Assembly: GCA_965370415.1 (NCBI GenBank)
Contig: CBDUTJ010000013.1
Span: 2,030-66,029 of the forward strand
Direction: 5' to 3'
Length of the DNA stretch: 64,000 bases
Source of the DNA: an uncultured bacterium
Lineage (GTDB): Bacteria; Cloacimonadota; Cloacimonadia; Cloacimonadales; TCS61
In this document: positions 692-40,954 of the stretch, in pieces
Layout: each line of letters starts with the position of its first letter
Position numbering within the stretch: position 1 is the stretch's first letter
Position numbers and translations under genes: made by a program
Notes under the pieces: generated by a model
Told to the model about the DNA's origin: nothing
Seen by the model: only the letters and a program-made list of their open reading frames with translations
Database searches by the model: none

Positions 692-3487
692 TCATTTCAA
701 CAACAAACATTTTTTCACTGCTTCAGTTTTGCCATTCACTTTCAATTTGTATAGATAAACACCTGAACTTATTGACTTACCTGATTCATCAATACCATTC
801 CATATAATTGAATACGAACCTTTTGTAAATTCATTTTGAGCTAAAGTTTTGATTTTCTGACCTTTGATATTGTAAACTACAAGTTCAATTTTAGAATTAT
901 TTTGGATAGAGAACTCAATTGTCGTTGTTGGATTGAAAGGATTTGGATAATTAGATAATTGAATATCATCAATTGAAGATTGGATGTTATCGATAACTAT
1001 TCCAATGGATTGTTCATAATAAAATGCTCCCATATCGGCAAATGTTCCGTCGGGATCGGGAGGTGAATTTGGGTCTCCGGCGTCGATACAGGGAGACATT
1101 GTAGAATCGGGAATTGGAAAATTAGCCCAGGTTAGATGGAAATCTCCATTTTGGGGATCTGCAAATAAAGGATTATCATCAATGTTACCTTCTCCTTCCC
1201 AACCTCCTTGGATATCAGAGAATGATACCTGAACTGATGAATTTGATGAAAGATAGATTTCGTCAGGTGAATCATTCCATAAAATACAATTCTGAAAATA
1301 TGGATCTGAAAAAAAACAATATATTCCACCACCATCAGAACCAGCAGAATTTTCACTTATCGTTGTATTTATAAATTCAGGATAAGAAAATTTACCGCAA
1401 TAAATACCTCCTCCGAAATTATCTGCAGAATTATTCGTAACCGATACTTTTTCAAAAGTAGGACTGGAATTACTAAGATAAATTCCACCACCATTTGAAG
1501 CAAAGCCGTTAATAATTCTCAAATTCTTAATTGTAGATTCTGTCAGATTAGTGATCGTAAATACACGATTTTGATGATTAGCATCTAAAATAGTCTCTCC
1601 ATTTTCCGCACCAATAATGGAAACATAATTTGTCGCGCAATGAATTTGTATCGGAAAAGATTCACCATTGGTAGATGAACTGTAAGTTCCAGCTGAAATA
1701 AATATTGAATGAGTTTGTAAACTGTCGGCATAGATCATATCGATGGCAAATTGTATTGTCTGTAAAGGATCATCCGGTGTAAGACCGGAATTTGAATTAT
1801 CACCATCTACCGCCACATAAAGGTCACTGTTTACTTGATTGTATCCATAAGCATGTAGAATATTAAAAGAAAAATTATCGATCGGATACGCATGGATTTC
1901 AGTCGGGTAATACACTGTGAAAGTATCGACAGAGACATAAATTATATTAGAATAAACATATTCAAAATATAGGTCATTTCCAAGATTGTTTGATGATGTA
2001 TTTGAGTAAATATTACAACGATTGTTATCGTCAAAATTAATATCCTCTCCAACCCAATATATACCACCACCAGTACCTGCATTATTATCTTTAATAGTAA
2101 CATTTGATAAATATATACTATTAGGATACCCGCAACCACTGGCAATTCCACCACCGGCATATCCTACTGAATTATCAGAAATGATAACATTAGTTAAATG
2201 CGGATGAGAATTTGATTCTTCGCAGAATATCCCTCCACCTTTATAAGATTCGTAATTATCGGTAAGAGTGATATTATTAAAACTCGGACTACTATACATA
2301 TCACAGAAAATTCCACCACCTCTTCTGGCATTACCATTCCTGATTGTAAGATTTTCTACTACTATCGAATCATATTCTTTCGGACAATGTAAAATTCGAT
2401 TTGATTCTTCACCGTCTAAAATAGTGAATCCCTGTTCTTCTCCCTGAATAGAAATATAATTTTTGCAAATTAGGGGATAGAATTCACCTGTTTGGGAAGG
2501 AGAATATGTCCCGTTCGCTATATGAATTGTATAAGATTCTTCATTAATGGATTCAATTTTCAATAAAGCATAATTGATTGAAAGAAGCGGGTCATCTGCG
2601 GTTAAACCGGTGTTGTCATTAGAACCCGTATGACTTACATACAAATCTTCATTTACCGGTTCAAATTTTGAATTTAAAATATCATAAGTGAAATTTCCCG
2701 TCGGATATGCAAAATAATCGGTTGGTTCTGAAACTGTGAAAGTATCGACTATGACATTTATTATTGGGCAATTATAATAAGCATTTAAATCGGTGCCTGA
2801 AGGTGCTGAATTTAAAAAGATATTACACCGATTTTCCGGATCAAAAATTAAATTAGAATTATCATAGCAGTAAATTCCTCCTCCTGTAGATTTGATAGCA
2901 ATATTTCTGCTTATGGTAACATTTTCTAAATTTATTATGGAATTATCATGACAATAGATACCACCACCAGAGTAACCTGTTGTGTTTTCAATGATGATAA
3001 CATCTTTTAAATATGGACAGGATTCTTTACAGAAAATACCGCCACCATCAAATCTTGCAGAATTTCCTTTGATTATAATATTTTGCAAAGTCGGATTAGA
3101 GTATTTCATATATATCCCACCGCCTCTGCCGGAAGTTCCGGAAAGTGCTTGAGATTCTCCATTAGTAATTGTAAATCCACATAAAACGGTAGTAGATTCC
3201 TCAATGTATTCAATAATAACCACGCTTCCATCTTGATTCCCATCTATGATTGTCTGTGAAATGTAAGCTGTATCTTGGGTTGTAAGAAACAGTGAAGCAA
3301 CCGTAATATTCTTTCCATTGTAATCTATATTCTCAACATAATTTCCAGGTTGAACTAACACAGTATCGGCATCTATAGCTACATTAATACCGGCTTGTAT
3401 TGTTGGTTGCTCTGCTGGAATATTTATTATCAATGCTGATAAATACAAAACAGAAAATAATCCCCAAACTGTCATTAATATTTTCAC
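692..3487 (-). CDS. secreted right-handed parallel beta-helix repeat protein with T9SS C-terminal sorting domain
   Basis: 931-aa ORF with a GTG start preceded by AAAGGAGGAG. It has a signal-like N-terminus and many GGGIY/GGGIF beta-helix (Pmp-like) repeats arranged as two similar halves. The C-terminus is [17 protein letters not shown]...GVYLYKLKVNGKTEAVKKCLLLK. Confidence 0.85.
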   Translation of the reverse strand: MKILMTVWGLFSVLYLSALIINIPAEQPTIQAGINVAIDADTVLVQPGNYVENIDYNGKNITVASLFLTTQDTAYISQTIIDGNQDGSVVIIEYIEESTTVLCGFTITNGESQALSGTSGRGGGIYMKYSNPTLQNIIIKGNSARFDGGGIFCKESCPYLKDVIIIENTTGYSGGGIYCHDNSIINLENVTISRNIAIKSTGGGIYCYDNSNLIFDPENRCNIFLNSAPSGTDLNAYYNCPIINVIVDTFTVSEPTDYFAYPTGNFTYDILNSKFEPVNEDLYVSHTGSNDNTGLTADDPLLSINYALLKIESINEESYTIHIANGTYSPSQTGEFYPLICKNYISIQGEEQGFTILDGEESNRILHCPKEYDSIVVENLTIRNGNARRGGGIFCDMYSSPSFNNITLTDNYESYKGGGIFCEESNSHPHLTNVIISDNSVGYAGGGIASGCGYPNSIYLSNVTIKDNNAGTGGGIYWVGEDINFDDNNRCNIYSNTSSNNLGNDLYFEYVYSNIIYVSVDTFTVYYPTEIHAYPIDNFSFNILHAYGYNQVNSDLYVAVDGDNSNSGLTPDDPLQTIQFAIDMIYADSLQTHSIFISAGTYSSSTNGESFPIQIHCATNYVSIIGAENGETILDANHQNRVFTITNLTESTIKNLRIINGFASNGGGIYLSNSSPTFEKVSVTNNSADNFGGGIYCGKFSYPEFINTTISENSAGSDGGGIYCFFSDPYFQNCILWNDSPDEIYLSSNSSVQVSFSDIQGGWEGEGNIDDNPLFADPQNGDFHLTWANFPIPDSTMSPCIDAGDPNSPPDPDGTFADMGAFYYEQSIGIVIDNIQSSIDDIQLSNYPNPFNPTTTIEFSIQNNSKIELVVYNIKGQKIKTLAQNEFTKGSYSIIWNGIDESGKSISSGVYLYKLKVNGKTEAVKKCLLLK

Positions 3488-3501: not shown

Positions 3502-3589
3502 AAAGTTGCTGCTAATGTTTGGCAGCTGCCACGCTCTACCTGCTTTTCTTCTTGCTTGGCTGTGGAGCTGTTTGTTAGCAGCATCTTTC
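3502..3589 (-). repeat. intercistronic long hairpin, short form (copy S1)
   Basis: GCTGCTAA...TTAGCAGC outer stem and CAGCTGCCAC...GTGG-AGCTG inner stem. It sits between the stop of the 3590 gene and the RBS of the 692 gene. Related copies lie at 5842, 9851 and 11903. Confidence 0.65.
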
Positions 3590-5827
3590 TCATTTCAGTA
3601 GCAAACACTTTTTTACTGCTTCGGTTTTACCATTCACATTTAATTTATAAAAATACAAACCTGAACTTACTGAATTTCCCGATTCATCATCACCATTCCA
3701 GAGAATTGAATGAGTACCTTTATCAAATTCATTGTTAGCTAGATTTTTAATTTTCTGTCCTTTAATATTAAAAATTGAAATATCAATATCAGAATCATTT
3801 TGAATCGAAAATTCAATTGTTGTTGTGGGATTGAAGGGATTGGGAAAATTATATAATTGATAATTTTGAATTAAAGCAATTTCTTCATCTATTATGCTTA
3901 TTCCATTTTCGTTATAGGCAACTAAACCACCTCCTCCAGTATAATTGGTAGCAGTAATCCACTTAGTTCCATCCTCATCAATTACAACATTTTTAACATA
4001 ATCTGCAGGCATACCAGAATTAGAATTATCATAAAAAGTCCAATCATTACCATCAAAACGAACTAAACCACTGTACATTGTACCAAGCCATTTTGTTTGG
4101 TTTTCATCAATTGCTATAGAAAAAACACAATTATCAGGTAATCCAGAGTTATTTGTATTATAAATGGTCCAATTCGTACCATCAAAATGTACCAGACCTT
4201 CATATTGGGTACCAATCCATAATGTGTTATTAATATCTATGGTTATTGATTTTATAGTGTTATCTGGTAATCCGGAATTATTAGTATTATACACTGTCCA
4301 GTTTATGTTGTCAAAACATGCTAATCCCCCTTGATTAGTTCCAATCCATTTTTTCCCATCAGCATCAATTGCGATACAGTTGACTCCATCAGAAGGAAGT
4401 CCTGAATTAATTGTATTATACAAAGTCCAATTTGAACTATCAATACTTATTACACCTCCACGCTGATCAAAGCCCATAGAGTGCATGCCAACCCATTTTG
4501 TATTATCCGATTCAATTACAATACATTTAATATTTTTAGATGTAAGAGCAGAATTTTCGTAATCATATACTGTCCATTCAGAGCCATCAAATTTAATTAA
4601 ACCATAAAAAAGGGCTCCAAACCATTTCGTACCATTATTTTCACAAGCTATTGCACGAATATCATCCTTAGTTAGAGGTGTATTAGAAGTTGTATAAACA
4701 GTCCATTCCGTTCCATCAAATCTTGCAAATCCATTATTTGTTCCAATCCATTTTGAATTATCAATATCAATTGCAAGAGCTGTAGGATGGTTGTTTGGCA
4801 TTTCTGAATTACTTGTTTCGTGTATAAACCAATTAATATCATCGAAACTACTTAATCCTCCAGTATGTTGCCATGTTATATTTCCAATCCACTTTGTGTT
4901 ATATTCATCAATTATTATTGATTCAACCGTATTACTCGGAAGATCTGAATTTTCAACATTGTACACTATCCAGTTTGAACCATCAAAACTTACCAGACCA
5001 AAGTGTTCAGCCCCAATCCATTTTTTTTCATTCTGATCTATTGCAATTGAATTAACAACGACAGATGGAAGCCCTGAATTTGTAGTATTATATATTGTCC
5101 AAATATTATCATCAAAGGTTGCTAATCCACCATAGTGTGTTCCAATCCATTTTGTTCCAATTGAATCAATTACTATTGAAGATATATAATTTGCAGGCAA
5201 TCCAGAATTGTCAACAGTGTAAATAATCCAATCTAATCCATCAAAACAAGCTAAACCTCCGTTCATATTTTCAAAACCGTGAGTTCCAATCCATATCCTG
5301 CCATCCTGCTCAAAAACAACTGGTCCCACATTATTAGCTGGTATTGGTGAGTTATATGTATTATAAAAAACCCAATCATTATCATCAAAAACGACTAAAC
5401 CATCTAATCGGGTACCAATCCATTTTTTGCCATCCTCATCAATTGTAATAGAATTAATCTGATTATATGTTAGGGGTGTATTTTCACTATTATATACAGT
5501 CCAGTTCGTTCCATCAAAACTTGATAAACCGCCATAATTGGAAGTGACGCTGTTGCCAATCCACTTAGTTCCGTTCTCATCAATAGCAATACAAGAAATA
5601 CTATTAAAGGGCAGACCTGAATTAGCACTATTGTAGAATTCAATTTCTTCTGTCTCCATATTGAGTTTAACGAGCCCACCTTCTGTTCCAATCCAATTGA
5701 TATTTCCTTCAATTGCCTGACAAGTAACATTATCACCATTGGTGTATTGTACCCATTCTGAGTTTTGAGCTGACAATGAAAAGGATATTAGGATAATAAA
5801 ATAAAATAATAACCTGATCTTTAACAT
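3590..5827 (-). CDS. secreted beta-propeller protein (two-component-regulator-propeller-like repeats) with T9SS sorting domain
   Basis: About 14 repeats of the pattern WIGT..GGL..FDG..WT.Y...NS.LP.N.V..I.ID. C-terminus NFPNPFNPTTTIEFSIQ...KKCLLLK. Start moved to the ATG at 5827 (MLKIRLL...), which has GGAGGA upstream; the track start at 5839 is a TTG inside that RBS. Confidence 0.85.
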   Translation of the reverse strand: MLKIRLLFYFIILISFSLSAQNSEWVQYTNGDNVTCQAIEGNINWIGTEGGLVKLNMETEEIEFYNSANSGLPFNSISCIAIDENGTKWIGNSVTSNYGGLSSFDGTNWTVYNSENTPLTYNQINSITIDEDGKKWIGTRLDGLVVFDDNDWVFYNTYNSPIPANNVGPVVFEQDGRIWIGTHGFENMNGGLACFDGLDWIIYTVDNSGLPANYISSIVIDSIGTKWIGTHYGGLATFDDNIWTIYNTTNSGLPSVVVNSIAIDQNEKKWIGAEHFGLVSFDGSNWIVYNVENSDLPSNTVESIIIDEYNTKWIGNITWQHTGGLSSFDDINWFIHETSNSEMPNNHPTALAIDIDNSKWIGTNNGFARFDGTEWTVYTTSNTPLTKDDIRAIACENNGTKWFGALFYGLIKFDGSEWTVYDYENSALTSKNIKCIVIESDNTKWVGMHSMGFDQRGGVISIDSSNWTLYNTINSGLPSDGVNCIAIDADGKKWIGTNQGGLACFDNINWTVYNTNNSGLPDNTIKSITIDINNTLWIGTQYEGLVHFDGTNWTIYNTNNSGLPDNCVFSIAIDENQTKWLGTMYSGLVRFDGNDWTFYDNSNSGMPADYVKNVVIDEDGTKWITATNYTGGGGLVAYNENGISIIDEEIALIQNYQLYNFPNPFNPTTTIEFSIQNDSDIDISIFNIKGQKIKNLANNEFDKGTHSILWNGDDESGNSVSSGLYFYKLNVNGKTEAVKKCLLLK

Positions 5828-5841
5828 TTTATCCTCCAAAA

Positions 5842-6146
5842 GTTGCTGCTAACGGCGGCGTGCCACGTCATCTTGCCATGAGCATTGGATATGATTTTTC
5901 ATATCCTGATGCGATTAGTAAGATGATAAAAGACGAGCAAATCAAAGTCGAGGGTTGCTGATTTGCAAGTCCCCGTGGACGTAGTATTAAACGATATTCC
6001 GCTTCGATACGGTTGCGAGTCTTTTTTAGTGGCACGCCGCCGTTAATCAACATGGAGCGAAGCGGAATGTTGATTAATGGTTGGCAGCTGCCACGCTCTA
6101 CTTGCATTTCTTCTTTGTTGGCTGTGGAGCTGTTTTTTAGCAGCAT
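5842..6146 (-). repeat. intercistronic long hairpin, long form (copy L1) carrying a nested insertion
   Basis: Same outer arms as S1 (GCTGCTAA / TTAGCAGC, CAGCTGCCAC / GTGGAGCTG), but about 225 nt are inserted between GCTGCTAA and TGGTTGGCAGCTGCC. Confidence 0.65.
5853..6077 (-). ncRNA. candidate structured RNA / MITE-like element (copy 1), unclassified
   Basis: 14-bp closing helix CGGCGGCGTGCCAC (5853-5866) / GTGGCACGCCGCCG (6029-6042). Internal hairpins GGATATGA/TCATATCC and GCAAATCA/TGATTTGC. Terminal hairpin TTAATCAACAT...ATGTTGATTAA (6043-6077), whose loop CGAAGCGGAA complements TTCCGCTTCG (5997-6006). A second copy at 11914 shows compensatory changes. Confidence 0.55.
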
Positions 6147-6151
6147 CTTTC

Positions 6152-8287
6152 TTATTTCAATAATAGACATTTCTTAACGGCTTCAGTTTTTCCATTTACA
6201 TTCAATTTGTAGAAATAGATTCCTGAACCGACTCGCTTATCATTAGAGTCCTTGCCATTCCAGATTACTGAATGATGTCCTACTGATAGTTGATCGCTGA
6301 TAAGTGTTTTCACTTTCTGCCCTTTGATGTTGTAAATGTCGAGAGTCACAAACGAGGATCCGTCTGAGCCGGACATAGCGTTTTGTGTTACAAAAAAGCT
6401 GATAATTGTAGACGGATTGAAAGGATTGGGATAGTTATGCAGGTCTGGTTCCCATGGAATAATCTCATTTTCGTCGGATTCCAATAATCCATCTAAAGAT
6501 ATCACAGCAAAACCACTTCTACTATTACTTGTAAGTAGATTGTCATCAACTAATATCATCTTAATAATTCGTCTGCAGCCACGATAATTATTCACTAAAA
6601 TAGGTGTAGTGGGATTTGAAATGTCATAGATAAACAACTCATTCCAACTTGCATCAGCAATTATTAGATCATTACCGTCTATTATAACCGGAGCAGTAAA
6701 TTCAGAATCTTCATGAGGTTGAATAGAAGTAATAAACATAATGGAAGCAGGATTTGATATATCCAATAAGATAACTCCACTTTCAGCGGAAACATAAAGA
6801 ATATTATCATTTATTTTCATCCCACCCACAAATCCGTCGATAGAATAAAACTCAACCAACTCTGGAATTTCCGGATTTGTGAGATCGATTATTTTGATTC
6901 CCTGCTGAAAGATTGCATAATATACATACCCGTTTTTTGCTTCCTCAGCCGTTTTCAAACCAAAATCATAATATCCGCTGATTTCAGATATTTCAAAAGG
7001 ATTGTCGATTGAATAGAACTTAATCTCAGCAGAGTCAAATTCAATGAGGATATCTTCCATAGTCAATAATTTATCGCCACCTGGAATTGATTCAAATGTG
7101 CTCAGTAATTCAGGTTCAAGAGGATTGGATAAATCATAAGAATAGATATTAATCCAATCTTTTGCAAACAAAACATCATTCCATAATGTAAAACTATAAA
7201 TATCATCTTCAGCATTGGGAAACTGAAGATATGTTGGTTCTTCCAAGTCCGAAAGATCAACTATGCCAGCCATTTCATTGTGATCATAACTAATATACAC
7301 AGCATTCTCATATAAATCCATATCTGCTGGAACGGATAGCAAATTACAACTGCCAATGCATTTTTCTTCTAAGGGATTAGAAAAATCTAATATTTGCATT
7401 CCTTCCCATCTTGTAATATCAAAAGCAATCTCATCAGAAACTATAAAGCCTTCAATAATTGCCCAGCTATCATACATTCCCAATGGATAAAGTTCAAAAT
7501 TTTCGGAAATCTGATATACATCGATTCCTGAACCATGCGAATATAGTATATTTTCTTCTACAACAAGTGGCATGCCAACCCCTTCTTGAGATGATAACTG
7601 TAACGGTTCCAAAGGATTGCTGAGATCAAATATATTTAGGCAATTTTGTTCTGCGTTTATATATAATTGTTCTTCATTTATGATAAAATATTCTGAGTAT
7701 GACGGGAGTTGACCGACCTGTGTGATATTATTAATATCTTCAATATTGAATATGTTTAAACCACCTTCGAAATACTGAACATAAGCAGCAGGCCAAACAA
7801 CATCAATGAGAATCGACCTCCAAAACTCTTCGTAATGTGCTTCGATAATTGGTGATTGTGGATTGGATACATCTACAAAATATAGACCTCCCTGACCACA
7901 AGCAGCATATAACATCTCATTTTTCACTGAAAGTGAAACACACCAATCAATCACAGGAATCATAGAAAGATGAATAGGATTTTCGGGATTTGAGACGTCA
8001 AAAATATCAATACGACCACCACCACCTATGTAGGCAATATCATCCTGTACAACAAAATCCTGAGCTATGGAATACATATTCGTTGTTGAAATTAATTCCG
8101 GGTTTCCAGGATCGCTGACATTTAATATACTCATTATATTCAACTCTAATAAATACAAATTATCGCCAATTAATACTCCATCAACTGAGATATATTCAGC
8201 ATGATAGTGCCCAATTTTATGGAAAACTGCATCCATATTAGAAAAACAGGTAAGCAGAATAAAAATTAATATTGTTATTTTTTTCAT
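6152..8287 (-). CDS. secreted LVIVD-repeat beta-propeller protein with T9SS sorting domain
   Basis: Repeated (I/V)xD(V/L/I)SNPxxPxxL motifs, at least 9 times (IFDVSNPENPIHL, FVDVSNPQSPII, IYDISNPTTPILV...). C-terminus [14 protein letters not shown]...GIYFYKLNVNGKTEAVKKCLLLK. The ATG at 8287 is preferred (GAGG upstream). Confidence 0.8.
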   Translation of the reverse strand: MKKITILIFILLTCFSNMDAVFHKIGHYHAEYISVDGVLIGDNLYLLELNIMSILNVSDPGNPELISTTNMYSIAQDFVVQDDIAYIGGGGRIDIFDVSNPENPIHLSMIPVIDWCVSLSVKNEMLYAACGQGGLYFVDVSNPQSPIIEAHYEEFWRSILIDVVWPAAYVQYFEGGLNIFNIEDINNITQVGQLPSYSEYFIINEEQLYINAEQNCLNIFDLSNPLEPLQLSSQEGVGMPLVVEENILYSHGSGIDVYQISENFELYPLGMYDSWAIIEGFIVSDEIAFDITRWEGMQILDFSNPLEEKCIGSCNLLSVPADMDLYENAVYISYDHNEMAGIVDLSDLEEPTYLQFPNAEDDIYSFTLWNDVLFAKDWINIYSYDLSNPLEPELLSTFESIPGGDKLLTMEDILIEFDSAEIKFYSIDNPFEISEISGYYDFGLKTAEEAKNGYVYYAIFQQGIKIIDLTNPEIPELVEFYSIDGFVGGMKINDNILYVSAESGVILLDISNPASIMFITSIQPHEDSEFTAPVIIDGNDLIIADASWNELFIYDISNPTTPILVNNYRGCRRIIKMILVDDNLLTSNSRSGFAVISLDGLLESDENEIIPWEPDLHNYPNPFNPSTIISFFVTQNAMSGSDGSSFVTLDIYNIKGQKVKTLISDQLSVGHHSVIWNGKDSNDKRVGSGIYFYKLNVNGKTEAVKKCLLLK

Positions 8288-8429
8288 CTTTTTCCTCACT
8301 ATTTAAAGTTTAATTCATATGACCAGTGGTTGATTTTGATTTTCATAAGTCCTTATTTTTCAACCACTGTGTCATCTTGAACTAAACTGAAACAATGTCA
8401 TATGTGCCCTTTCCTGTAGTCATATGATA

Positions 8430-9850: not shown

Positions 9851-9928
9851 GTTGCTGCTAATGTTTGGCAGCTGCCACGCACTTTCACTTTCTCTTCTTG
9901 CTTGGCTATGGAGCTGTTTGTTAGCAGC
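9851..9928 (-). repeat. intercistronic long hairpin, short form (copy S2)
   Basis: GTTGCTGCTAATGTTTGGCAGCTGCCACGC...GGCTATGGAGCTGTTTGTTAGCAGC, directly after the stop of the 9936 gene. One arm substitution (GTGG to ATGG) gives a C-A mismatch in plus sense but a G-U wobble in minus sense. Confidence 0.6.
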
Positions 9929-9935
9929 TTCCTTT

Positions 9936-11902: not shown

Positions 11903-12208
11903 GTTGCTGCTAACGGCGGCGTGACACGTCAGATCGCCATGAGCAGTGGATTTGAGCTTGCTCAAACTCCTGCTGTGATTAGTGAGCTGATAAGAGACGA
12001 GCAAATCAAAGTCAAGGGTAGTCGATTTGCGAGTCCCCGTGTACGCATTTTTAAACGATGTTCCGCTTCGATACGGTTGCGAGTTTATCATAGTGTCACG
12101 CCCGCTTTAACCAACATGGAGCGAAGCGGAATGTTGATTAATGGTTTGAGCCTGCCACGTTCTTCTTGTTTTTCTTTCAATCTGAATGTGGAGGCTTTTG
12201 TTAGCAAC
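11903..12208 (-). repeat. intercistronic long hairpin, long form (copy L2, partly degenerate) carrying a nested insertion
   Basis: Outer arms GTTGCTGCTAA / TTAGCAAC. The inner arms changed coordinately relative to S1 (AGCCTGCCAC / GTGGAGGCT versus CAGCTGCCAC / GTGGAGCTG). Confidence 0.55.
11914..12141 (-). ncRNA. candidate structured RNA / MITE-like element (copy 2)
   Basis: Colinear with 5853-6077. The closing helix is CGGCGGCGTGACAC / GTGTCACGCCCGCT, a compensatory C-to-A and G-to-T change versus copy 1. The hairpin GGATTTGAG/CTCAAACTCC occupies the position of GGATATGA/TCATATCC. The segment ...GACGAGCAAATCAAAGTC...GATTTGC...GTCCCCGTG...AAACGAT.TTCCGCTTCGATACGGTTGCGAGT... and the loop GGAGCGAAGCGGAATG are conserved. 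Confidence 0.55.
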
Positions 12209-12264
12209 ATCGATCTTAGATACAATAATACGATCAATGTTAATATTTATTTTTCTTACTAAAG

Positions 12265-12840
12265 TCACTTTTCCCTTTTATGATTTTTAAAAGATTTATT
12301 TTCAGTAGAAGTTGGGATGTTATCTCTCTCTTCCGTTGAAGCAGTTACATAATAGAATTTCTTATCTGTTCCCGTAATGTTAGAAGTCCAAGTTTGCCGA
12401 TTACGGGTTTCATCACTGATATTCTTTTTTGTTTTCGTATTTTGTTTTCGGGATGAATTTAGCTTGGTTACAGAAGTATCACTGGTCGTTGTTCCAAAAG
12501 TTCCTGAACTACTGATATCAACAAACTGTCCATAAGGATCATCCGAAGCAAAGATTTTATAAGAATTAGCACTTGTTACTTCATCCCAAGAAAGTACAAC
12601 ATTACCACTGTTTGTTTCAATGCTTATATTAGTAGGTGAGCCTGGTGGTAACTCAGAGCTTTGAATGATTAAACCGATTCGATTTCCAACATCATCATAA
12701 GTATAAGAAATTATAGTTCCATTACCGTAATCGACATTTGTTAACCGGTTGAGATTATCATATTGATAAGAGATATTTTGTGAAAAAATTGTTAAAGGGT
12801 ATATCAATATGATAAAAATTAATAAAGTATAATATTTCAT
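12265..12840 (-). CDS. small secreted protein with two YD repeats and a fibronectin-III-like module
   Basis: Signal peptide MKYYTLLIFIILIYPLTIFSQ. YQYDNLNRLTNVDYGNGTIISYTYDDVGNRI is YD-repeat-like. PGSPTNISIETNSGNVVLSWDEV..ANSYKIF...KKFYYVTA is FN3-like. AAGGAGGA RBS, 16 nt after the RHS gene stop. Confidence 0.75.
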   Translation of the reverse strand: MKYYTLLIFIILIYPLTIFSQNISYQYDNLNRLTNVDYGNGTIISYTYDDVGNRIGLIIQSSELPPGSPTNISIETNSGNVVLSWDEVTSANSYKIFASDDPYGQFVDISSSGTFGTTTSDTSVTKLNSSRKQNTKTKKNISDETRNRQTWTSNITGTDKKFYYVTASTEERDNIPTSTENKSFKNHKREK

Positions 12841-12856
12841 TACTATTTCCTCCTTG

Positions 12857-15800
12857 TTATTGACGCTTATCTTTTAAAATCTCCAATATTCGATCACATA
12901 ATTTAATTTTCATTAAAGATTCACTTATATCGGTTCCTAAAATCTTTCTAATGGGATCAACAAATGTCATACGTCTACCATTTAACAGATAATCAATAGC
13001 TTCGTCCAATGTCGATTCCCCTTCTACAACTTCTAGTGCTAGTCTATCAATATCCCTTTTTGCTGAGTCCAGTATTCTCTTTTGCGATTTAGAAATTTCA
13101 AAATAGGCGACCGTATAATTAATAACATCTCCAGCTCCAGATACATTCCCAGCAACTGACATTATACCAGTTAATAATGGATCGTCATCTTCCATGGAAT
13201 CAAGACCCTTTGGATCAATATTAATCAATGGATTATTCCCGGCATAAGCATACAAATTCACATCCCAAATCGGATCTTCAGAAATAAACCTTCCGATTTC
13301 AGGATCAAAGTATCTTGCTCTCATAAAATATAAACCATTTTCTTCATCCATTACGCCAAATTGCCCAACAAAGCGGAAAGCATTATCATCCTCTTCTTCT
13401 TGTTCCAAAACCTGTCCAAAAGGGCCATAAGAATATTTATGAGTAAGAATACCATTTTCATCTGTCATCGCAATGGTGCTTCCTATTGAATCATATTGAT
13501 AGTAACGAGTATTATTATTGTTATCAATACGAGAAACAAGTCCTAAACCATAAATGTAATAATTCATAACATTCCCATTCTCGTCAGTTTCCATTAGAAT
13601 ATTACTCATCTGCCCATTTATATCAAGAACATATCTTGTTGTAACACCGTTTTTTGTAGCCGTGCGTCTATTACCAAAAAGGTCATAAACATAATTCGTA
13701 TTATTTATATCAATATCAGTTAATCTGTCCAAAACATCCCAGGTATAATTTGTTGTCGTAAAGCCTATTCTTTGAGTCATATTTCCGTTTACATCATGAC
13801 TGAAAGACGCGGAACCAGCAGATTGAATTCTATTGGCGTTATCATAAGAATACGATTCATTCAAATCAAGTAAAACAGGTAATGGATAAGGTTCAGTAAT
13901 GTCCTCTGAAAGGTGGTTTCCAATCGCATCAAGAACATAGCCGTAATCACAGATTAATCCTTGTGGACCTGTTGTAGTATAATTAGTTAAACGACTATTG
14001 TTATCGTAATCATAATTTGTTGTACATCCATTTGGATTCTGTATTTGGTATAAAGTTCCATCTGCACGATAAGTATATGTTGTTGTATTCCCGTTCCAAT
14101 CCGTTACAGAATTTAACTGGTTGTTATCATAATATGTATAATTAACTGTTTTATTATCAGGATAGGTTATGCTTCCAATGTTGTTTGCATCATCATAAGT
14201 GTATTGAACAACATTCTCATAATAATCGGTGTAATATAATAAACGATTTAAGCCGTCGTAAGAATTCAGCCAAATGTCTCCGTTATTATCAGAAAGGTGA
14301 ACTAAGTTGTTATTGTCATCATAAGATAGACTTCCATTTATAGCGCCTCCAGACAAATTATTTAATTTGCCTTGATTGTCGTATGCATAATTAATGGTTT
14401 GACCATCCGGTTTGATTTTTGTTTGAATTTGACCATTATCATAATAATTAAAGCTTGTCTGTTGCGAAAGTGGGTTACTAATTGTAGAGACTAAATCCAT
14501 ATCGTTATACGACATTGAGGTTGTTTGACCTGATGTAGATATTGATGTAAGATTGTCATTAGAATCATAATCATAATTTGTGGTTATATTAGCAGCATTA
14601 GTCACCGTATCTAAAAGATCATTATTCAAATATGAATAAGCTGTAGTTTGATTATTTGCATTTATCTTACTTGTTAAGCGACTTATATCATCACAATCAT
14701 AAGATGTTGTATGCCCTAAATTATCGATTATACTGGTAACACTACCATATTGATCATAATAGTATGATGAAGTTTGAGATAATGGATCATTCACTTGATT
14801 AATCGTTCCGTCAGAATTGTAATTAATACTCATCGAACCAAAAGGAGCGGGTTTGTTTATTGATGTAATATTTCCATAACTATCATAACCATATTGATAT
14901 TGTTTTCCTCTTGGATCTGTGTAATTAGTTACATCATTAAAAACATTATATTCGAATTGATGAATTATGCTGTATGGTTTTTCAATTGATTCAGCATTTC
15001 CTATTATATCATAGTCTATCATTGTATCATAATTATTTCCGTCAGTGATAATTGTTGGTTTAGTTGGATTAGATGTGTCGCCATAGTAATATGTAAAATT
15101 ACTACCGGTTGTTAGTATGCTTTGAATTAAACCATCTATTTCAGAAGTATATCCATAATCTTGGATTATCCCGTTTGCATCAGTAATTCGTGTTGCTGTA
15201 GGAACACTGTTATATCCATAGTCTACGGATATAAATTGACCTGTAGAGCCAATATTTTGAGAAATAATTTTCTTATTATTATAAGAATTAGTGATTATAT
15301 TATCTTCTGGTAATTGTATTTGTGTCAATAAGTGGTCTTCTCGATGGTCGGTATCATAAGAATAAGTAGTATAATGTCCAACAGCATCCGTAAATTGTAT
15401 TAGATTGTTATCATTATCATATTCAAACTGAATATTACGACCAATCGGATCTGTTACCTGATAAATTAATTGTTCCTTTCCTGCTTCAGTATGGTAGGTA
15501 AATATTAGTACTCTTCCTTTCGGACCTATTACAGATGTAAGTCTTCTCTCTGCTTCCGGTATATATGAGCAGGTTATAGTATTGTTATTTCTATCAGTAA
15601 TTGACGTTAAAAATGCCGTTTCATCTGTAGTGGGATTTAGGATTTCAAAAGTATAAACAACTTGATTTTTCTTCTTAATTTCATAAGTATCTGAAATTTT
15701 TATCAACTCATCATATACACCTAATGTTATCGGTTCCAATGTACTATTGTCATATATATGTATCGTTCCACCGGGCCAGAAAACAAAGATCAATACATCT

Positions 15801-18211
15801 GATTCAAAGATATATGCACTATAATTATGACTCCATCCTGGTCCCAAAGAATTAATTGGGCACATTAACCGGGTTGAATAAGAGTTATAAGTATGAGCAA
15901 AATCAAGAGACATTCTGCCACTTGGGATAGAAAAACTTGTTTTTGTATAATGATTAAAATTTCCATTTTGAGGATTAATACCATATCCTGCTGAAGGTTG
16001 TCTTTCATTCCAGGGACGCATCGCTAAATTACCACTAAGTGAAACATAAGCAAGAAAACCCCAGTCAATATAATCCGCATTAAAAGCATTGTTTCTTTCA
16101 ATTTCACTTGTAGTATAGAAATTGTCATTTACAATAGGATTTCCAGAATCAAGGTAAACATAATACATTTTTACTAATTCAGTGTGTGGTGATCCGAAAG
16201 CATATCCAGTTATACCTTCATAATCCCAGCCTGCAATAATCTTATTATCTTTATCTGTTTCATCTGTGGTATAATAATGTCTGTTTTCGCTCGGAATGCT
16301 ATTTTCACTTCCTTTATATAATCTGAAAATATTTACCAGATCAGTTGTATCAAAAGGATATAGTGATAAATAACCTTCGGTTTTTTCATAGTTATAGCCA
16401 TCTGAATTTGCTTGAACTAAATGACTATCTGCAGTGCAATAAAAATGATCCATGTCTCCCGGATGATATGCTCTGTAAATAGGAACCCAATCAGGTTCAT
16501 CAAGTTTTGTTGGTGAATATGTGAAAGTGCTAACTGATGATACAATGGAATCACCATTTGCGAAAAAGCCTTTTACCTTCCAATAATAGTAATTCTCAGA
16601 AAGCCAATTTCCACAAAGCTCATACGATGTTCCGTAAATATCCTCAAATACTGAATGCCTGTCTGCAATTTCCGGTGAACCAAATCCTTCATTATTGTCT
16701 ACTATCAATTCGTAGTGATTTGCACCAACTTCAGTCCAACTAAAGATAATTTCTGATGTAGTTATTGTTTCATCTATTGTGGGGGTCAATAAACTGATTA
16801 CTGATGTATGAAAATTATATCCTTCTACCCATTGAGGATCATTTATCAAAGTTCCATTATTAGCATATTGAGTTTTATCATAAGCCACATTTCCAATGCC
16901 TTCATTAAAATCCCAGTAACCTACTAAATCTGTTGTATCTGCAGGATTGTTCATGTTAAGTTCACGATATATTCTTTCTTGGATTTCTTGCTGTGACAAA
17001 GCTCGTTTCCATATTCTGACTTCTTCAATCAATCCGTCAAAATGGTAATTGCCAATTGAATATATTGAAGCGCCTATTAGAACTTTTGAATTAGAATTGT
17101 AGATACTACCTGTTTGACCTAAACCTGTTCCTCTTTCTATTCCATCTACAAATATTCTTATTGTATTATCAAAAACATTATAGATTCCAGCTAAATGATA
17201 ATAGTTATTTAATACTAAAACACTATCAGCAGTAGCATTGAATTCACCATTTATTCCATCACCCGATACAGCAAATAATGCATACCCATTATCCACTCTT
17301 AATACCCAACTTCCTCTATTATCTGATTCCGTCTTCCACTTCGAGACAATATGAGCATCAGTAAATGAATCTGCTTTAATCCAAGCTTCTATTGTTATTT
17401 CATCTTGAATATCAAAGCTATCATCATTTCCACAATCGACATAATCATCATTACCATCAAAATCAAGAGCGTATTGACCTGAAGAATGGAACATTGTTTT
17501 ACTTCCAACTTCACCCCAGTTATCTTCTGAATCTTTAAATCGGACAAAGATAGTATGCAATCCTGAATCTAATCCTGTTGTGGATATGTCATTAAGATAA
17601 GCTGTAGCTGTTGAACTTCCAAACGATCCTGTTAAAAATGTTCCGTTTCCTTGCCCCGGATCTGTATCTATAAAATATTCTGCTGATATGATCACACCTG
17701 AATTCGGATTTCCTACATTTAGAAAAACTGCTGTTGATTCACCCCAATTATTATCTGAATCTTTGAAACGAACATAAACAATATGTGTACCAAACGAAAG
17801 CCACGAAGTTGAAATTCCTGATAATGAAGCAGTAGCTGTTGTACTTCCGAATGTTCCTGATAAAGATGTTCCGTTTCCTTCTCCCGGATCTGTATCAATG
17901 AAGTATTCAGCGGAAGTAATTATACCAGAATCAGGATTTCCTACGTTCAGGAATATTGCTGCCGGTTCACCCCAATTATCATCAGAATCTTCGAAGCGAA
18001 CATAGACAGTATGAGTTCCCAAAGAAAGTTCAGAAGTTGAAATTCCTGATAATGAAGCAGTAGCTGTTGAACTTCCGAATGTTCCTGATAAAGATGTTCC
18101 GTTTCCTTCTCCCGGATCTGTATCAATGAAGTATTCAGCTGATATGATTGTATTTGCAAAAGAAATTATTGGAAAGATACAAATAAATAATAAAATTAGC
18201 ATTATTTTCAT
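12857..18211 (-). CDS. RHS/YD-repeat polymorphic-toxin-like protein (signal peptide, 3 tandem N-terminal modules, LamG-like domain, DHFYT-type repeats, YD shell, variable C-terminal tip)
   Basis: 1784 aa. LDFDGNDDYVDCGN...W is LamG/ConA-like. YRAYHPGDMDHFYC, RHYYTTDE and DNFYTTSE resemble DUF5648-type repeats. Dozens of YD repeats (YxYDxxGN). RHS core end is RARYFDPEIGRFISEDPI...NLYAYAGNNPLINIDPKGL, followed by about 115 aa of unrecognised sequence. Confidence 0.9.
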   Translation of the reverse strand: MKIMLILLFICIFPIISFANTIISAEYFIDTDPGEGNGTSLSGTFGSSTATASLSGISTSELSLGTHTVYVRFEDSDDNWGEPAAIFLNVGNPDSGIITSAEYFIDTDPGEGNGTSLSGTFGSTTATASLSGISTSWLSFGTHIVYVRFKDSDNNWGESTAVFLNVGNPNSGVIISAEYFIDTDPGQGNGTFLTGSFGSSTATAYLNDISTTGLDSGLHTIFVRFKDSEDNWGEVGSKTMFHSSGQYALDFDGNDDYVDCGNDDSFDIQDEITIEAWIKADSFTDAHIVSKWKTESDNRGSWVLRVDNGYALFAVSGDGINGEFNATADSVLVLNNYYHLAGIYNVFDNTIRIFVDGIERGTGLGQTGSIYNSNSKVLIGASIYSIGNYHFDGLIEEVRIWKRALSQQEIQERIYRELNMNNPADTTDLVGYWDFNEGIGNVAYDKTQYANNGTLINDPQWVEGYNFHTSVISLLTPTIDETITTSEIIFSWTEVGANHYELIVDNNEGFGSPEIADRHSVFEDIYGTSYELCGNWLSENYYYWKVKGFFANGDSIVSSVSTFTYSPTKLDEPDWVPIYRAYHPGDMDHFYCTADSHLVQANSDGYNYEKTEGYLSLYPFDTTDLVNIFRLYKGSENSIPSENRHYYTTDETDKDNKIIAGWDYEGITGYAFGSPHTELVKMYYVYLDSGNPIVNDNFYTTSEIERNNAFNADYIDWGFLAYVSLSGNLAMRPWNERQPSAGYGINPQNGNFNHYTKTSFSIPSGRMSLDFAHTYNSYSTRLMCPINSLGPGWSHNYSAYIFESDVLIFVFWPGGTIHIYDNSTLEPITLGVYDELIKISDTYEIKKKNQVVYTFEILNPTTDETAFLTSITDRNNNTITCSYIPEAERRLTSVIGPKGRVLIFTYHTEAGKEQLIYQVTDPIGRNIQFEYDNDNNLIQFTDAVGHYTTYSYDTDHREDHLLTQIQLPEDNIITNSYNNKKIISQNIGSTGQFISVDYGYNSVPTATRITDANGIIQDYGYTSEIDGLIQSILTTGSNFTYYYGDTSNPTKPTIITDGNNYDTMIDYDIIGNAESIEKPYSIIHQFEYNVFNDVTNYTDPRGKQYQYGYDSYGNITSINKPAPFGSMSINYNSDGTINQVNDPLSQTSSYYYDQYGSVTSIIDNLGHTTSYDCDDISRLTSKINANNQTTAYSYLNNDLLDTVTNAANITTNYDYDSNDNLTSISTSGQTTSMSYNDMDLVSTISNPLSQQTSFNYYDNGQIQTKIKPDGQTINYAYDNQGKLNNLSGGAINGSLSYDDNNNLVHLSDNNGDIWLNSYDGLNRLLYYTDYYENVVQYTYDDANNIGSITYPDNKTVNYTYYDNNQLNSVTDWNGNTTTYTYRADGTLYQIQNPNGCTTNYDYDNNSRLTNYTTTGPQGLICDYGYVLDAIGNHLSEDITEPYPLPVLLDLNESYSYDNANRIQSAGSASFSHDVNGNMTQRIGFTTTNYTWDVLDRLTDIDINNTNYVYDLFGNRRTATKNGVTTRYVLDINGQMSNILMETDENGNVMNYYIYGLGLVSRIDNNNNTRYYQYDSIGSTIAMTDENGILTHKYSYGPFGQVLEQEEEDDNAFRFVGQFGVMDEENGLYFMRARYFDPEIGRFISEDPIWDVNLYAYAGNNPLINIDPKGLDSMEDDDPLLTGIMSVAGNVSGAGDVINYTVAYFEISKSQKRILDSAKRDIDRLALEVVEGESTLDEAIDYLLNGRRMTFVDPIRKILGTDISESLMKIKLCDRILEILKDKRQ
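17498..18151 (-). repeat. three tandem ~228-bp (76-aa) intragenic repeats at the RHS N-terminus
   Basis: The protein repeats IISAEYFIDTDPGEGNGTSLSGTFGS(S/T)TATASLSGISTS.LS.GTH.VYVRF.DSD.NWGE....FLNVGNP.SG three times. The third copy is more diverged. Confidence 0.8.
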
Positions 18212-35969: not shown

Positions 35970-36854
35970 TTAAAATGCCCGTGATAGATCTGCCTCTATC
36001 GGAGATTCCTCGAATTTAATCTTAAATTCTTCAAACGACATTGCTTTTTCCCAGATATTTTCAAATACAAACTTTTGTGACATTGCAAAGCTGTGATGGT
36101 TAATGATCATAGTGGTTACACTCGGTTGCAAAGAAATTGTATCATTTAAGGAGAGCATTGTTATATTTTCATCAAAGATAGCTAACTTCATAGGCAACTC
36201 TTTTACTATTCTCACCTCTTCTTCATTAGAAATTAAAGCAGAAACAATTTTTATAAATTCTTTTTTTTCAGATTCAGATGTAATGCCCTTATATTCACAA
36301 ATATCCCTTTGAATAACTTGTCTTCTATCCTTATTAGTATTACGAAGACTTTTTTCTTCCATTATAGCCTCTTTAGGTGAACTAGCATAAGGTGGTTTTG
36401 TAAAGATAAGGATTTCCTTTTTTGCATTCTTATTGATACTCAACCATTTTTTTCTAACCTGTTCTTTGTCTTTAATAATTTCAATATATTCTAAGGGATT
36501 ATCTTCCCCTTTCCTCTTTTCATACAAAGGTGAAAGAATATTCAATATCTGTTTAGTCATATTTTCTTTTACGCCCAAATCTTTTCTATATATCATTAGT
36601 AATTTATCCAAAGAATATTCAGGATCCACAGCTTCATATTTTTTAAGCCGTCCAATTTTTCTCTCTGCGCACAGCCCTTTACCAATTAACCGATACAATA
36701 CCTCATAAACTTTGGTCCTTGGGATATTGACGAGTTGTTGTATTTCAGAGGCAGTAAAGTCCTTTTTATTAAATAGAGTGATATATACTTTTGCCTCACG
36801 TGTGGATAATCCAAAATCAATAATGTATTCTTCTAGTTCTTTTAAATCAAACAT
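35970..36854 (-). CDS. TrmB-family-like transcriptional regulator
   Basis: N-terminal winged HTH pattern FGLSTREAKVYITLFNKKDFTASEIQQLVNIPRTKVYEVLYRLIGKGL. ATG at 36854 with GGAGG upstream. Confidence 0.7.
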   Translation of the reverse strand: MFDLKELEEYIIDFGLSTREAKVYITLFNKKDFTASEIQQLVNIPRTKVYEVLYRLIGKGLCAERKIGRLKKYEAVDPEYSLDKLLMIYRKDLGVKENMTKQILNILSPLYEKRKGEDNPLEYIEIIKDKEQVRKKWLSINKNAKKEILIFTKPPYASSPKEAIMEEKSLRNTNKDRRQVIQRDICEYKGITSESEKKEFIKIVSALISNEEEVRIVKELPMKLAIFDENITMLSLNDTISLQPSVTTMIINHHSFAMSQKFVFENIWEKAMSFEEFKIKFEESPIEADLSRAF

Positions 36855-37338
36855 TTCTATTACCTCCATTAAAGGTAAAGCTTAGTTACCTTTTTATAGT
36901 ACAATAAGATTTCAACCAAAATAATCTGTCAAGAATTTTCTCGGTTATGTATTTAGTTGAGTGGGAAAAATTAGCAATTAGCCCTTTAGCAATTAACCTT
37001 TAGTAATAAAAAATTAAAAAATGGAAAATGGAAAATGGAAAAACTATAAAACCAGTACAATGGAAACGTGTTCTTACATCAGAATAGTGACAAATTCATA
37101 TATCAATACGAATAATAATATTAACAAATAAACGAGCAAAATTATTAAAAACAAACCAAATTAACTTTTTGCGTGCAATGCGCAGATAGGTGAAAGTACT
37201 ATTATTATCCGAAGTTATCTCAAATATTTTATAAATATATTTCATTCTAAACCAACTATGAACCGATCTAAAACAATTTATAAATTTCACTAAAACCTTT
37301 TGTTCCAATATATTTTTCAAAATCAAGCGACCAACTAA

Positions 37339-37368
37339 CGGTCAATTACCGGTCAATTCGGTCAATAC
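37339..37368. repeat. three tandem direct repeats of CGGTCAAT at ~10-bp spacing
   Basis: aCGGTCAATTAcCGGTCAATTCGGTCAATAcc, immediately outside the terminator of the VWA gene near the proposed left end of the element. Confidence 0.6.
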
Positions 37369-37369
37369 C

Positions 37370-37392
37370 TAAAAAAGAGGGATTTACCCTCT
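37370..37392 (-). terminator. rho-independent terminator after the VWA gene
   Basis: Minus-sense AGAGGG-TAAAT-CCCTCT followed by TTTTTT. Confidence 0.7.
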
Positions 37393-37418
37393 TTTAGATA
37401 GTGAGAATAAACATCCCA

Positions 37419-38534
37419 CTATCCCATATGTATCACCTCACCAAAAGGTGGTTTGAAGTTAGCTTTATCTGTTAGAATCCACAAAGTCGGATAATCAGGT
37501 GGTTCCGGAAATGAATCGCAATATCCATCTGTGAAATAGATAACACAGGATGGCAAAATATCTTCTTGCTCAATATAAGCAAATCCCGGTTTGAAGTCTG
37601 TACCACCACCCCCTTTGGCATGAAGCTGGAAATCATAAATATCGATGGTTTCGATATTAGCTACTTTGGAATCCACATAGATGACCTTGATCTCTGTCCC
37701 CGGATAAATAGACAAAATTGCCTGTAATTCAGCTGCAAATATATCCAGTTCTTTCTGTGAGACCGAACCGCTGGTATCAATAATAACAGCAATTGTTCCG
37801 AGCGTGGGAACATTAAGCCCGGGAAGATACAATCCGGAATACAGATAACGCTTATTGGGCTGTTTCCAAGTATAATCATTCCTGGCATTTTCTGTAATGA
37901 AGCGAGATAATATCTCTTTCCAATTAAGCTTCGGTTGTAAGGTCTCCTGGATCATTCTCTCCAGACCAGCCGGAAGTTTACCCTGAGCCTTGGCAACCGC
38001 TGCTGCACGTGCTATTGTTATTTTGCAGTTCTTGATCTGCTGGGGAAGAGTGTTTGCGTGGCTACTCTTACTATTGCTCCTGTCCTGCTTGTAATCTCTC
38101 ACTTCGCCCATGAGGGCAACTGCAACTGGTATTTTAATGGATTTGGGAAGTTGGTTATAGATCACTTCTGCTTCCAGATCCTTGAACTTAGAATCAGATA
38201 ATGCTCCTTCGGGAAGTGAAAATCCGGAATCTTTAACGATGGGATTAACTGCATAATCGCAGGCAACATTCCACTTAAGATGTTCTCTGCTGTTTTTTCT
38301 GAAAGGATGGAGCATAGCGATATGAAGAACTTCATGACAGATGACGGCCTTTAATTCGGCATTTGATAGTTTATCAATAAACTGAGGATTATAACCCAGT
38401 ACTACCGAATCCGTATAAGCTGTCTCACATTCAGTGTCTTCCTCCAACCTCAATTGAAGAGCAATAGAGGCAAAAAAAGGGCTTGAAAGAACCAGTCCCG
38501 CTCTCGCTTTGGTTAGTTTCTTTATTGTTTCCAT
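37419..38534 (-). CDS. zincin-like metallopeptidase (HExxH) fused to a VWA domain (DUF2201-like architecture)
   Basis: AVICHEVLHIAMLH contains HExxH. AVIIDTSGSVS is a DxSxS MIDAS motif. 371 aa, with its start 1 nt after the upstream stop. Confidence 0.8.
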   Translation of the reverse strand: METIKKLTKARAGLVLSSPFFASIALQLRLEEDTECETAYTDSVVLGYNPQFIDKLSNAELKAVICHEVLHIAMLHPFRKNSREHLKWNVACDYAVNPIVKDSGFSLPEGALSDSKFKDLEAEVIYNQLPKSIKIPVAVALMGEVRDYKQDRSNSKSSHANTLPQQIKNCKITIARAAAVAKAQGKLPAGLERMIQETLQPKLNWKEILSRFITENARNDYTWKQPNKRYLYSGLYLPGLNVPTLGTIAVIIDTSGSVSQKELDIFAAELQAILSIYPGTEIKVIYVDSKVANIETIDIYDFQLHAKGGGGTDFKPGFAYIEQEDILPSCVIYFTDGYCDSFPEPPDYPTLWILTDKANFKPPFGEVIHMG

Positions 38535-38535
38535 A

Positions 38536-39042: not shown

Positions 39043-39054
39043 ATATTCCTCCAC

Positions 39055-39903: not shown

Positions 39904-39922
39904 GTTATCCTCCTTTATTTTT

Positions 39923-40924: not shown

Positions 40925-40954
40925 ATTATTTTCTCCTTTATTGTTTTTGGACAT

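Follow-up and report, generated by a model that had tools for sequence, protein, structure and literature searches.

A 225-nt structured element of Cloacimonadota is probably a gene-less mobile cassette of an integron-like system

The window analysed here is a stretch of 64,000 nucleotides (nt) from an uncultured bacterium of the Cloacimonadota (GenBank assembly GCA_965370415.1, contig CBDUTJ010000013.1, positions 2,030 to 66,029 of the forward strand). Part of it (692-35947) holds at least nine genes with a type IX secretion system (T9SS) C-terminal sorting domain, attached to unrelated N-terminal domains (beta-helix, Reg_prop, LVIVD, FG-GAP, Kelch, cohesin, arylsulfotransferase-like). Two copies of a structured element, the subject of this study, lie between genes here, each within a hairpin that resembles an integron attC site (Table 1); the genes in this part of the window are all on the minus strand, and the element is read in minus sense. 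A previous description made from the letters alone, referred to here as the sequence-only reading, had delimited both copies and called them a discrete conserved structured element with no open reading frame (ORF) conserved in frame and no recognizable RNA family. Both were recovered as the exact inserted segments, with 81% identity over ~330 nt when the upstream host site and the downstream ribosome-binding site (RBS) are included, and the remaining points were borne out as well: the fold covaries in 44 distinct copies, 1-2 nt indels segregate at six alignment columns, and the only gathering-score Rfam match in the whole window is a tRNA. A search of 5700-6300 against Rfam 15 at E ≤ 10 returned four chance-level matches only.

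Comparison of intergenic regions defined the ends of the element. Of the homology between the two copies, no more than the first ~105 nt is also present 3' of two further genes (window 3616-3513 and 9962-9859), and side by side an empty site reads GCTGCCAAACA↓TTAGCAGCAACTT and a filled one GCTGCCAACCA↓TTAATCAACATT ... GTGGCACGCCGCCG↓TTAGCAGCAACTT (the arrow marks the crossover point throughout). The window is ~94.5% identical to contig JAUXIJ010000114 over 2.5 kb, and in this relative of ~95% identity (L034) the element precedes the cassette with the orthologue of gene 692-3487, where the window has the empty site 3506-3584. Loci L138 and L157 have the left flank and the element in common and differ in their right flanks. 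On these sequence comparisons the element is an insertion, because both paralogous sites of the window are empty and the relative is filled at one of them.

Copies were collected by a genome scan and a metagenome scan, followed by nhmmer; the genome-scan pattern was self-complementary and drew many unrelated hairpins, and only Cloacimonadota-type matches were kept. This yielded ~60 full or partial copies, mainly in Cloacimonadota metagenome-assembled genomes (MAGs) and very often at contig ends (at least seven contigs of JAUXIJ01), and no match to the element in viral contigs, plasmids or phages. Identity among the 44 distinct full copies ranges from 69 to 100%, with a mean of 84%. The element always sits at the R↓TTA crossover of ~80-nt attC-like hairpins located after genes: flanks differ among copies, but in the 48 flanked copies the left flank nearly always ends (C/A)AAAC-A↓TTA. 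Both ends of the 225-228-bp DNA segment are this crossover point, with an R↓TTA start in 44/44 distinct full copies and an end ...C(G/A)↓TTA in nearly all (about 25 copies have G at alignment column 253 and about 17 have A). 3'-truncated derivatives that keep the start hairpin alone also occur, with variable end points. Rearranged forms were seen at L034:8-221, where a right end of the element has been joined to the 5' half of a host site, with a second element after it, and at L114:1490-1560, where the right-end motif GATGTGGCACG is repeated.

The element starts with 11 nt (TTAATCAACAT) whose reverse complement lies at nt 25-35 (ATGTTGATTAA); a C, an arm GGCGGCG..., a branched core of 160 nt and an arm ...CGCCGCC-G follow in that order. 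In copy 1 the junction with the 5' arm reads GATTAAC-GGCGGCG, an R''-like box. Terminal inverted repeats (TIRs) of the type found in miniature inverted-repeat transposable elements (MITEs) are absent between the termini ATCAACAT... and ...GCCGCCG, and the inverted repeats are internal and circularly permuted. Folding z-scores of -10.7, -9.1 and -8.9 are far below chance expectation. A structure of 64 pairs was examined on a MAFFT alignment of the 44 distinct copies, which come from genomes and metagenomes of Cloacimonadota, and 94.4% of its cells pair. In 23 pairs both sides have changed, compared with 11.0 ± 1.8 in shuffles (0/500 are as high) and with 3-9 in controls with slid partners. The compensatory changes first noticed between the two window copies are real, and in the larger set of nhmmer-collected homologues the signal stands well above both controls. 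Helices with support are the start hairpin (columns 8/34, UA 31 and AU 9, and 13/29), the outer 8-10 bp of the long stem (columns 39/253, CG 22 and UA 15; 41/251, CG 21 and GC 17; 44/247, GC 36 and UA 5), CCACG/CGTGG, TCATCT/AGATGA, GCAAAT/ATTTGC, AAAAGAC/GTCTTTT and the GGATTTGA hairpin.

Not every helix proposed from two copies stood in its original form. The 14-bp closing helix is perfect in copy 1 (5853-5866 with 6029-6042); in copy 2 the paired GTGACAC/GTGTCAC change is present, but the outer four positions are degraded (GTGTCACGCCCGCT in place of the expected GTGTCACGCCGCCG) and ~10-11 of 14 positions pair. The G-to-T change assigned to this helix covaries instead with the core (GTCCACG to GTACACG; columns 116/242, CG 40, AU 4, none broken) and only inconsistently with the 5' arm, and as far as the alignment goes the best compensatory pair of the sequence-only reading is better explained by pairing with this core segment. 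The exchange of the GGATATGA/TCATATCC hairpin for a different paired stem was confirmed, with 4/5 pairs doubly changed family-wide, as was the retention of GCAAATCA/TGATTTGC, which covaries in the family at 4/6 pairs. The loop of the terminal hairpin (6043-6077) is indeed complementary over 10 nt to 5997-6006 (rough chance estimate ~1e-3, for a loop that is partly fixed by the search patterns), but the suggested pseudoknot pairing shows no compensatory change.

Table 1. Coordinates of the element copies, their parts and the attC-like sites in the window
Feature	Position	Strand	Sequence and remarks
Copy 1	5853-6077	-	225 nt; minus sense TTAATCAACAT...GTGGCACGCCGCCG; flanks CCA↓ (left) and ↓TTAGCAGCAAC (right); from comparison with empty paralogous sites and 48 flanked copies
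Copy 2	11914-12141	-	228 nt; from sequence comparison with copy 1
Start hairpin, copy 1	6043-6077	-	TTAATCAACAT (6077->6067) pairs with its own R''-type extension ATGTTGATTAA (6053->6043); 13-nt loop
Start hairpin, copy 2	12107-12141	-	Plus strand TTAACCAACAT / ATGTTGATTAA, one C-A mismatch
Long-range stem 5' arm, copy 1	6029-6042	-	Minus sense CGGCGGCGTGCCAC; directly after TTAA of the start hairpin
Long-range stem 3' arm, copy 1	5853-5866	-	Minus sense GTGGCACGCCGCCG; last G directly before the crossover G↓TTA
Core, copy 1	5867-6028	-	Conserved ~160 nt, branched fold; CCACG/CGTGG, TCATCT/AGATGA, GCAAAT/ATTTGC, AAAAGAC/GTCTTTT, hairpin GGATATGA/TCATATCC
Core 10-mer complementary to start-hairpin loop	5997-6006	+	TTCCGCTTCG; within copy 1 core
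Promoter-like motif in core	5923-5951	-	Faces downstream gene; copy 1 TCGACT-17-TATCAT, family consensus TTGACT-17/18-TATCAT
Occupied host attC-like site	6078-6146	-	Downstream of gene 6152-8299; GCTGCTAAA-AAAC-AGCTCCAC...GTGGCAGCTG-CCAACCA↓
Occupied host attC-like site	12142-12210	-	Upstream (minus sense) of copy 2
Empty paralogous attC-like site	3506-3584	-	...GCTGCCAAACA↓TTAGCAGCAAC; from host-site profile and comparison with filled sites
Second empty paralogous attC-like site	9852-9930	-	From host-site profile and comparison with filled sites

The strand on which this structure matters was approached through wobble pairs. It had been remarked that a C-A mismatch in copy 2 becomes a G-U wobble in gene sense, which is correct at that single position, but the asymmetry across the family favours the opposite strand: with one weak 3-bp helix left out, single-side departures are minus-sense A-C (G-T on the plus strand of the window) 81 times and minus-sense G-T 19 times, a tally of sequences rather than of independent events that strand-biased C-to-T mutation could also yield. 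On the plus strand the start-hairpin loop reads GGA-GCGAAGC-GGA (GCGAAGC at 6057-6063 in copy 1), and the oligonucleotide d(GCGAAGC) forms a DNA mini-hairpin with a melting temperature of 76.5 °C, while the closely related GCGAAAGC motif, when made of RNA, melts at only 39 °C (PMC13037366). One variant that was not chosen by a search pattern (L068:3989) has the start stem fully replaced, with compensation, and keeps the same loop. Together, the wobble asymmetry and the mini-hairpin point, if indirectly, to the plus strand of the window folding as single-stranded DNA, and it is probably this fold, that of the cassette bottom strand, on which selection acts. The bottom strand is the one recombined at attC sites. 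Covariation of the kind seen here need not reflect an RNA, as selection on a single-stranded DNA fold gives it too.

The hairpins that receive the element were modelled as a hidden Markov model profile of reconstructed empty sites, which found 105 matches in the fetched loci and four in the window; among the T9SS-domain genes of 692-35947 only four precede a site of this type. The stem of a host site encloses a purine-rich loop and has one additional base on its 3' side; before it stand (A)TGC-NNN-TAAC and a spacer of 3-4 nt, and after it (C)CAAAC and A↓TTA-NNN-GCA(A). The stems covary between loci (5' variants CAGCTCCAC, CGTGCCCAC, AAGCCTCCAC and CGTGTCAGTGCTC), the spacer AAAC faces CCAAAC, and the 3' arm carries an extra base (GTGG[C]AGCTG and similar), the last two features as judged by eye over the 105 matches. 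A longer type of ~130 nt ends CCGCCGCACACGCAAAACA↓TTA. The arms of the element resemble these sites (GATTAAC ... GTGGCAC ... G↓TTA), and fusions through the common CGTGGCA occur (L183, L034). At L139:745-814 a different mini-hairpin, TTGAGACGACATTCGTCGCCTCAA, occupies the host-site crossover in place of the start hairpin of the element. The host site of copy 2 lies directly downstream of a 1784-aa RHS-repeat gene and a separate 191-aa RHS-repeat ORF (window 12265-18211); the small ORF may be a split or displaced C-terminal tip.

The start of a segment provides a test for a cassette: in integrons, the first bases can pair with the 5' box of the attC site at the downstream end of the same cassette and not with the site next to them upstream. 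In the arrays, ordinary gene segments behave in this way, with 9-15 bp of complementarity between start and own site in L240, L184, L185, L183, L215 and L242. Five successive segments of L240 match their own sites at 11/11, 15/15, 13/13, 9/11 and 12/12 positions; own and adjacent sites score 10/10 and 5/10 in L184, 9 and 6 in L185, and 10 and 6 in L183; L242 reaches 11/12, including a compensated core change (TTA to TTC with TAA to GAA). Over 20 site pairs the means out of 10 are 8.05 for own, 6.6 for adjacent and 6.2 for random sites. Own-complementary 11-mers were also sought generically, but the AT-rich DNA made the result too noisy to be informative. The element follows the same rule, its TTAATCAACAT pairing with ATGTTGATTAA over 11 bp with two covarying pairs, and since its start box and R'' are separated by just 13 nt they appear as the terminal hairpin of the sequence-only reading. 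The closing helix described there would then be the rest of the site of the start hairpin, split by integration: if the ends were joined, the two hairpins would merge into an 11-bp R-box-like stem running into the GGCGGCG/CGCCGCC stem.

Related loci place such arrays beside a recombinase locus, in the order tandem recombinase pair, direct-repeat site, array (adjacency in L014, L238-L240 and L242-L245). The pair of tyrosine recombinase (YR) genes is conserved (L014:182-2357; L238:9115-11077; L240:8959-11068; L241:8955-11074; L245:8995-11074). In L014, which belongs to the same MAG as the close relative of the window, the pair is followed by ~60 nt with two direct repeats and by G↓TTAATCAACATT, the element being the first segment. 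In L238, L239, L242, L243 and L244 an attI-like region ~110 nt after the recombinase stop holds two or three direct repeats AGTTAATGCGAAC and ends CGTGGCGTGCATATG↓TT. Five contigs with near-identical recombinases and downstream region diverge exactly after this point, continuing as TTAGCTGCAAT, TTATGCACCTC, TTCAGCGCAAT, TTAGCGGAAAC and TTACAAGCAAC, and many contigs end 100-300 nt or less from it; in L240 a co-oriented array follows directly. The downstream gene product, YR-B, keeps the catalytic residues RKHRHY in 5/5 genomes. The upstream YR-A is conserved but degenerate, without both arginines and one histidine (T/S, K/L/D, S/T, K, H, F/Y). In L014 both have a C-terminal SPLDxL in common with IntI1, the best NCBIfam matches of the recombinases (XerA/integron integrase and TIGR02249) are under their cut-offs, and the second recombinase has homologues widely in Cloacimonadota, with others in Marinimicrobia. 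The integrase encoded in the window (46719-47819) was rejected as the array recombinase, as it is a Bacteroidetes-type integrase adjoining a tRNA. It belongs to a probable integrated element (36000-48100) beside that tRNA (47996-48068, minus strand), with genes for an HTH_17 protein (45686-46696), a MerR regulator (44604-45167), a serine recombinase (42563-43933), an AAA ATPase and a DUF2201 metallopeptidase.

We therefore read the element, with a probability of about 0.7, as a gene-less mobile cassette that is almost wholly its own recombination hairpin, in an integron-like system of Cloacimonadota. By analogy with IntI and attC, a tyrosine recombinase would excise the segment as a circle and then reinsert it, in a constant orientation, where a second attC-like or attI-like site, folded from single-stranded DNA, has its R↓TTA. 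YR-B, catalytically intact and encoded with its degenerate paralogue YR-A just upstream of such arrays, is the candidate for this enzyme. The core may be just a variable terminal structure that lets a large site fold.

Several points weigh against this assignment. The canonical integron crossover is G↓TT in the 3' core site, and most host sites here have A↓TTA. The own stem of the element, in contrast to those of the host sites, runs almost without interruption, and neither a conserved bulge nor an unpaired spacer was seen in it. The window itself, with its four attC-like sites, contains no such recombinase pair. Aligned with IntI1 and XerD, YR-A and YR-B of L014 lack the IntI-specific insertion of ~35 aa, and the three recombinases tested score 170-211 bits against TIGR02249 (integron integrase; cut-off 265), matched in two stretches. 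Both the circular form and the enzyme are put forward by analogy; the sample is biased towards copies that keep the start hairpin, both collection scans having used start-hairpin patterns; and the wobble tally has the limits given above. Finally, a mere scaffold would require far less sequence conservation and a simpler fold than those of the core, and the core may have an additional function as RNA, promoter or protein-binding site.

Measured against integron cassettes and attC sites, including ORF-less cassettes and large sites such as the Vibrio VCRs, the likenesses are considerable. Segments are bounded at a fixed crossover in the 3' box, their start is complementary to the 5' box of their own site so that a circle would rebuild the hairpin, and site structure is conserved above sequence; in the host sites, one arm seems by eye to have an additional base, and a spacer seems to stay unpaired. 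Arrays run in one orientation, and a variable first segment lies beside a recombinase gene and an attI-like direct-repeat site. The differences are the pair of an active and a degenerate recombinase gene, co-oriented with the array and, in the two sequences aligned with IntI1, without the IntI-specific domain; a crossover at G↓TTA in the attI-like site but for the most part at A↓TTA in cassette sites; box complementarity of 9-15 bp rather than 7; and cassettes that include T9SS-secreted protein genes of 2-3 kb. The site of the element itself is unlike attC in its length (~190 nt), its sequence-conserved branched core, its almost uninterrupted stem and its many copies per genome. Short multi-copy intergenic hairpins after genes are also typical of repetitive extragenic palindromic (REP) sequences and bacterial interspersed mosaic elements (BIMEs), and REP-like repeats of unrelated soil-metagenome contigs have a hairpin with an identical 21-nt centre. 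Unlike the element, REPs show no crossover-bounded swapping of downstream partners and no own-start complementarity across a whole gene. The 21-nt centre, ACATTCCGCTTCGCTCCATGT, sits in the different hairpin CTACACAT...ATGTGTAGCTA at L121:~1890-1930, L150, L175, L141, L142, L176, L189 and L199, contigs in which other palindromes flank it and no element copy is present; several come from soil samples.

The alternative that survives best keeps the same cassette mechanics and sees the core as maintained for driving or modulating transcription of the next cassette, that is, as a mobile promoter or expression signal. A motif TTGACT-17/18-TATCAT faces the downstream gene in 32/44 copies, with both hexamers in the most conserved stretch, and copy 1 has 9/12 matches, although this sigma-70-like consensus may not be the promoter type of Cloacimonadota. 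There is also a precedent in gene-less integron cassettes, since ORF-less cassettes with promoter activity are documented (PMC6557892). The motif alone is not significant, however (3 matches in the region, 1.5 expected), and in five copies the second hexamer reads TATCAG with the change compensated in a helix (columns 173/234), so that what is conserved there is the pairing and not a -10 box. A role of this kind is possible, though we regard it as less likely than not.

A functional RNA in gene sense, towards which the sequence-only reading had leaned, could be a 5' leader of the downstream secreted-protein gene, a ribozyme, or a guide scaffold like the omega-RNAs of TnpB/IscB with its 3' end running into the flank. 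It would explain the strong fold (z = -10.7) with covariation in several long-range helices, the position 20-40 nt upstream of the RBS in most copies, the degree of core conservation and the loop-to-core complementarity. It was not borne out. The element is dispensable at paralogous and near-orthologous sites, the downstream genes are mutually unrelated, its boundaries are the recombination crossover used by gene cassettes, and no Rfam family matches even at E ≤ 10. The 81 to 19 split of single-side changes is for the opposite strand, on which the loop motif is a DNA-specific mini-hairpin, and the pseudoknot is uncompensated. We consider such an RNA improbable.

A non-autonomous transposon that merely targets hairpins and is moved in trans by its own transposase rather than by the array recombinase (an IS200/IS605-type palindrome-associated element, or a derivative like IS1111-attC or IS110) we judge just as doubtful. 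In its favour are the small size, the multi-copy and assembly-breaking distribution, the lack of TIRs or an obvious target duplication, the insertion 3' of an RTTA that the right end carries too (as in IS200/IS605), the left-end hairpin, the structured ~200-nt region abutting the right end, as in omega-RNA loci, and the 3'-truncated derivatives. However, no autonomous copy stands behind any of ~130 left ends, and coreless left ends lead into ordinary host genes. The lead to IS200/IS605 and tnpB genes also failed, in that an IS200 TnpA query was unmatched in 599 ORFs of 624 kb of fetched flanks, although no search was aimed at tnpB. The subterminal hairpins at the two ends are unlike, the left hairpin is not repeated at the right end, and no match of omega-RNA type was found in Rfam. 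Above all, the end logic (a start complementary to the own R'' and an R↓TTA crossover) is common to ordinary gene segments of the arrays and to the recombinase-adjacent site, which makes a separate transposition system unnecessary. Beside one copy, a tyrosine recombinase gene and then an IS91-family transposase gene (L187:255-2248, divergent, ~130 nt from the occupied host site) could be seen as favouring transposition, but this is a single case and was treated as coincidental. IS1111-attC insertion sequences and group IIC-attC introns are 1-2 kb long and encode their own enzyme. Like them, the element sits in cassette arrays at attC-type hairpins in one orientation; unlike them, it is 225 nt and encodes nothing, and its two ends fall precisely on the cassette crossover. 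Outward promoters are present in group IIC-attC introns (PMC3001079). A division into two adjacent MITEs, a mini-hairpin with 11-bp TIRs and an element with 14-bp TIRs, was dropped, as short forms end variably and gene cassettes have the same circular-permutation logic.

An ordinary duplicated intergenic region or terminator of paralogous secreted-protein genes, or a small protein-coding gene, would fit the T9SS C-terminal domain and similar 3' ends of the flanking genes and the 100-aa ORF across copy 1 (5868-6170), but is refuted by the empty paralogous sites, to which the element is an insertion, by the varied flanks (many unrelated genes in many samples) and by an ORF that has no Pfam match and frames that indels break.

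Placed in a wider frame, the cassette may belong to an integron-like system of Cloacimonadota and Marinimicrobia-annotated relatives that is new to the literature searched, run by a conserved pair of an active and a degenerate recombinase, without the IntI domain in the aligned representatives, and shuffling cassettes, large T9SS-secreted genes among them, at A/G↓TTA in attC-like hairpins; the element would be a cassette that propagates itself and consists of no more than its recombination site, and possibly a mobile promoter. We put this larger proposal forward tentatively, at slightly less than even odds. A search of the literature on integrons in Cloacimonadota, Cloacimonetes, Cloacimonas and Marinimicrobia, and on attC with T9SS tails, found no such system described.

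As a caution for similar studies, strong covariation together with the lack of an Rfam match is not proof of a new RNA, since single-stranded DNA recombination sites give the same signal. If the system is as proposed, cassette shuffling at folded single-stranded sites would not be limited to IntI-type integrases, and surveys that demand the IntI-specific domain would miss such platforms. The element would then give an actual example of a cassette pared down to its recombination site that has spread to many copies, with a bearing on selfishness at the level of the cassette and on the expression of distal cassettes, and it would explain a repeat that fragments Cloacimonadota assemblies.

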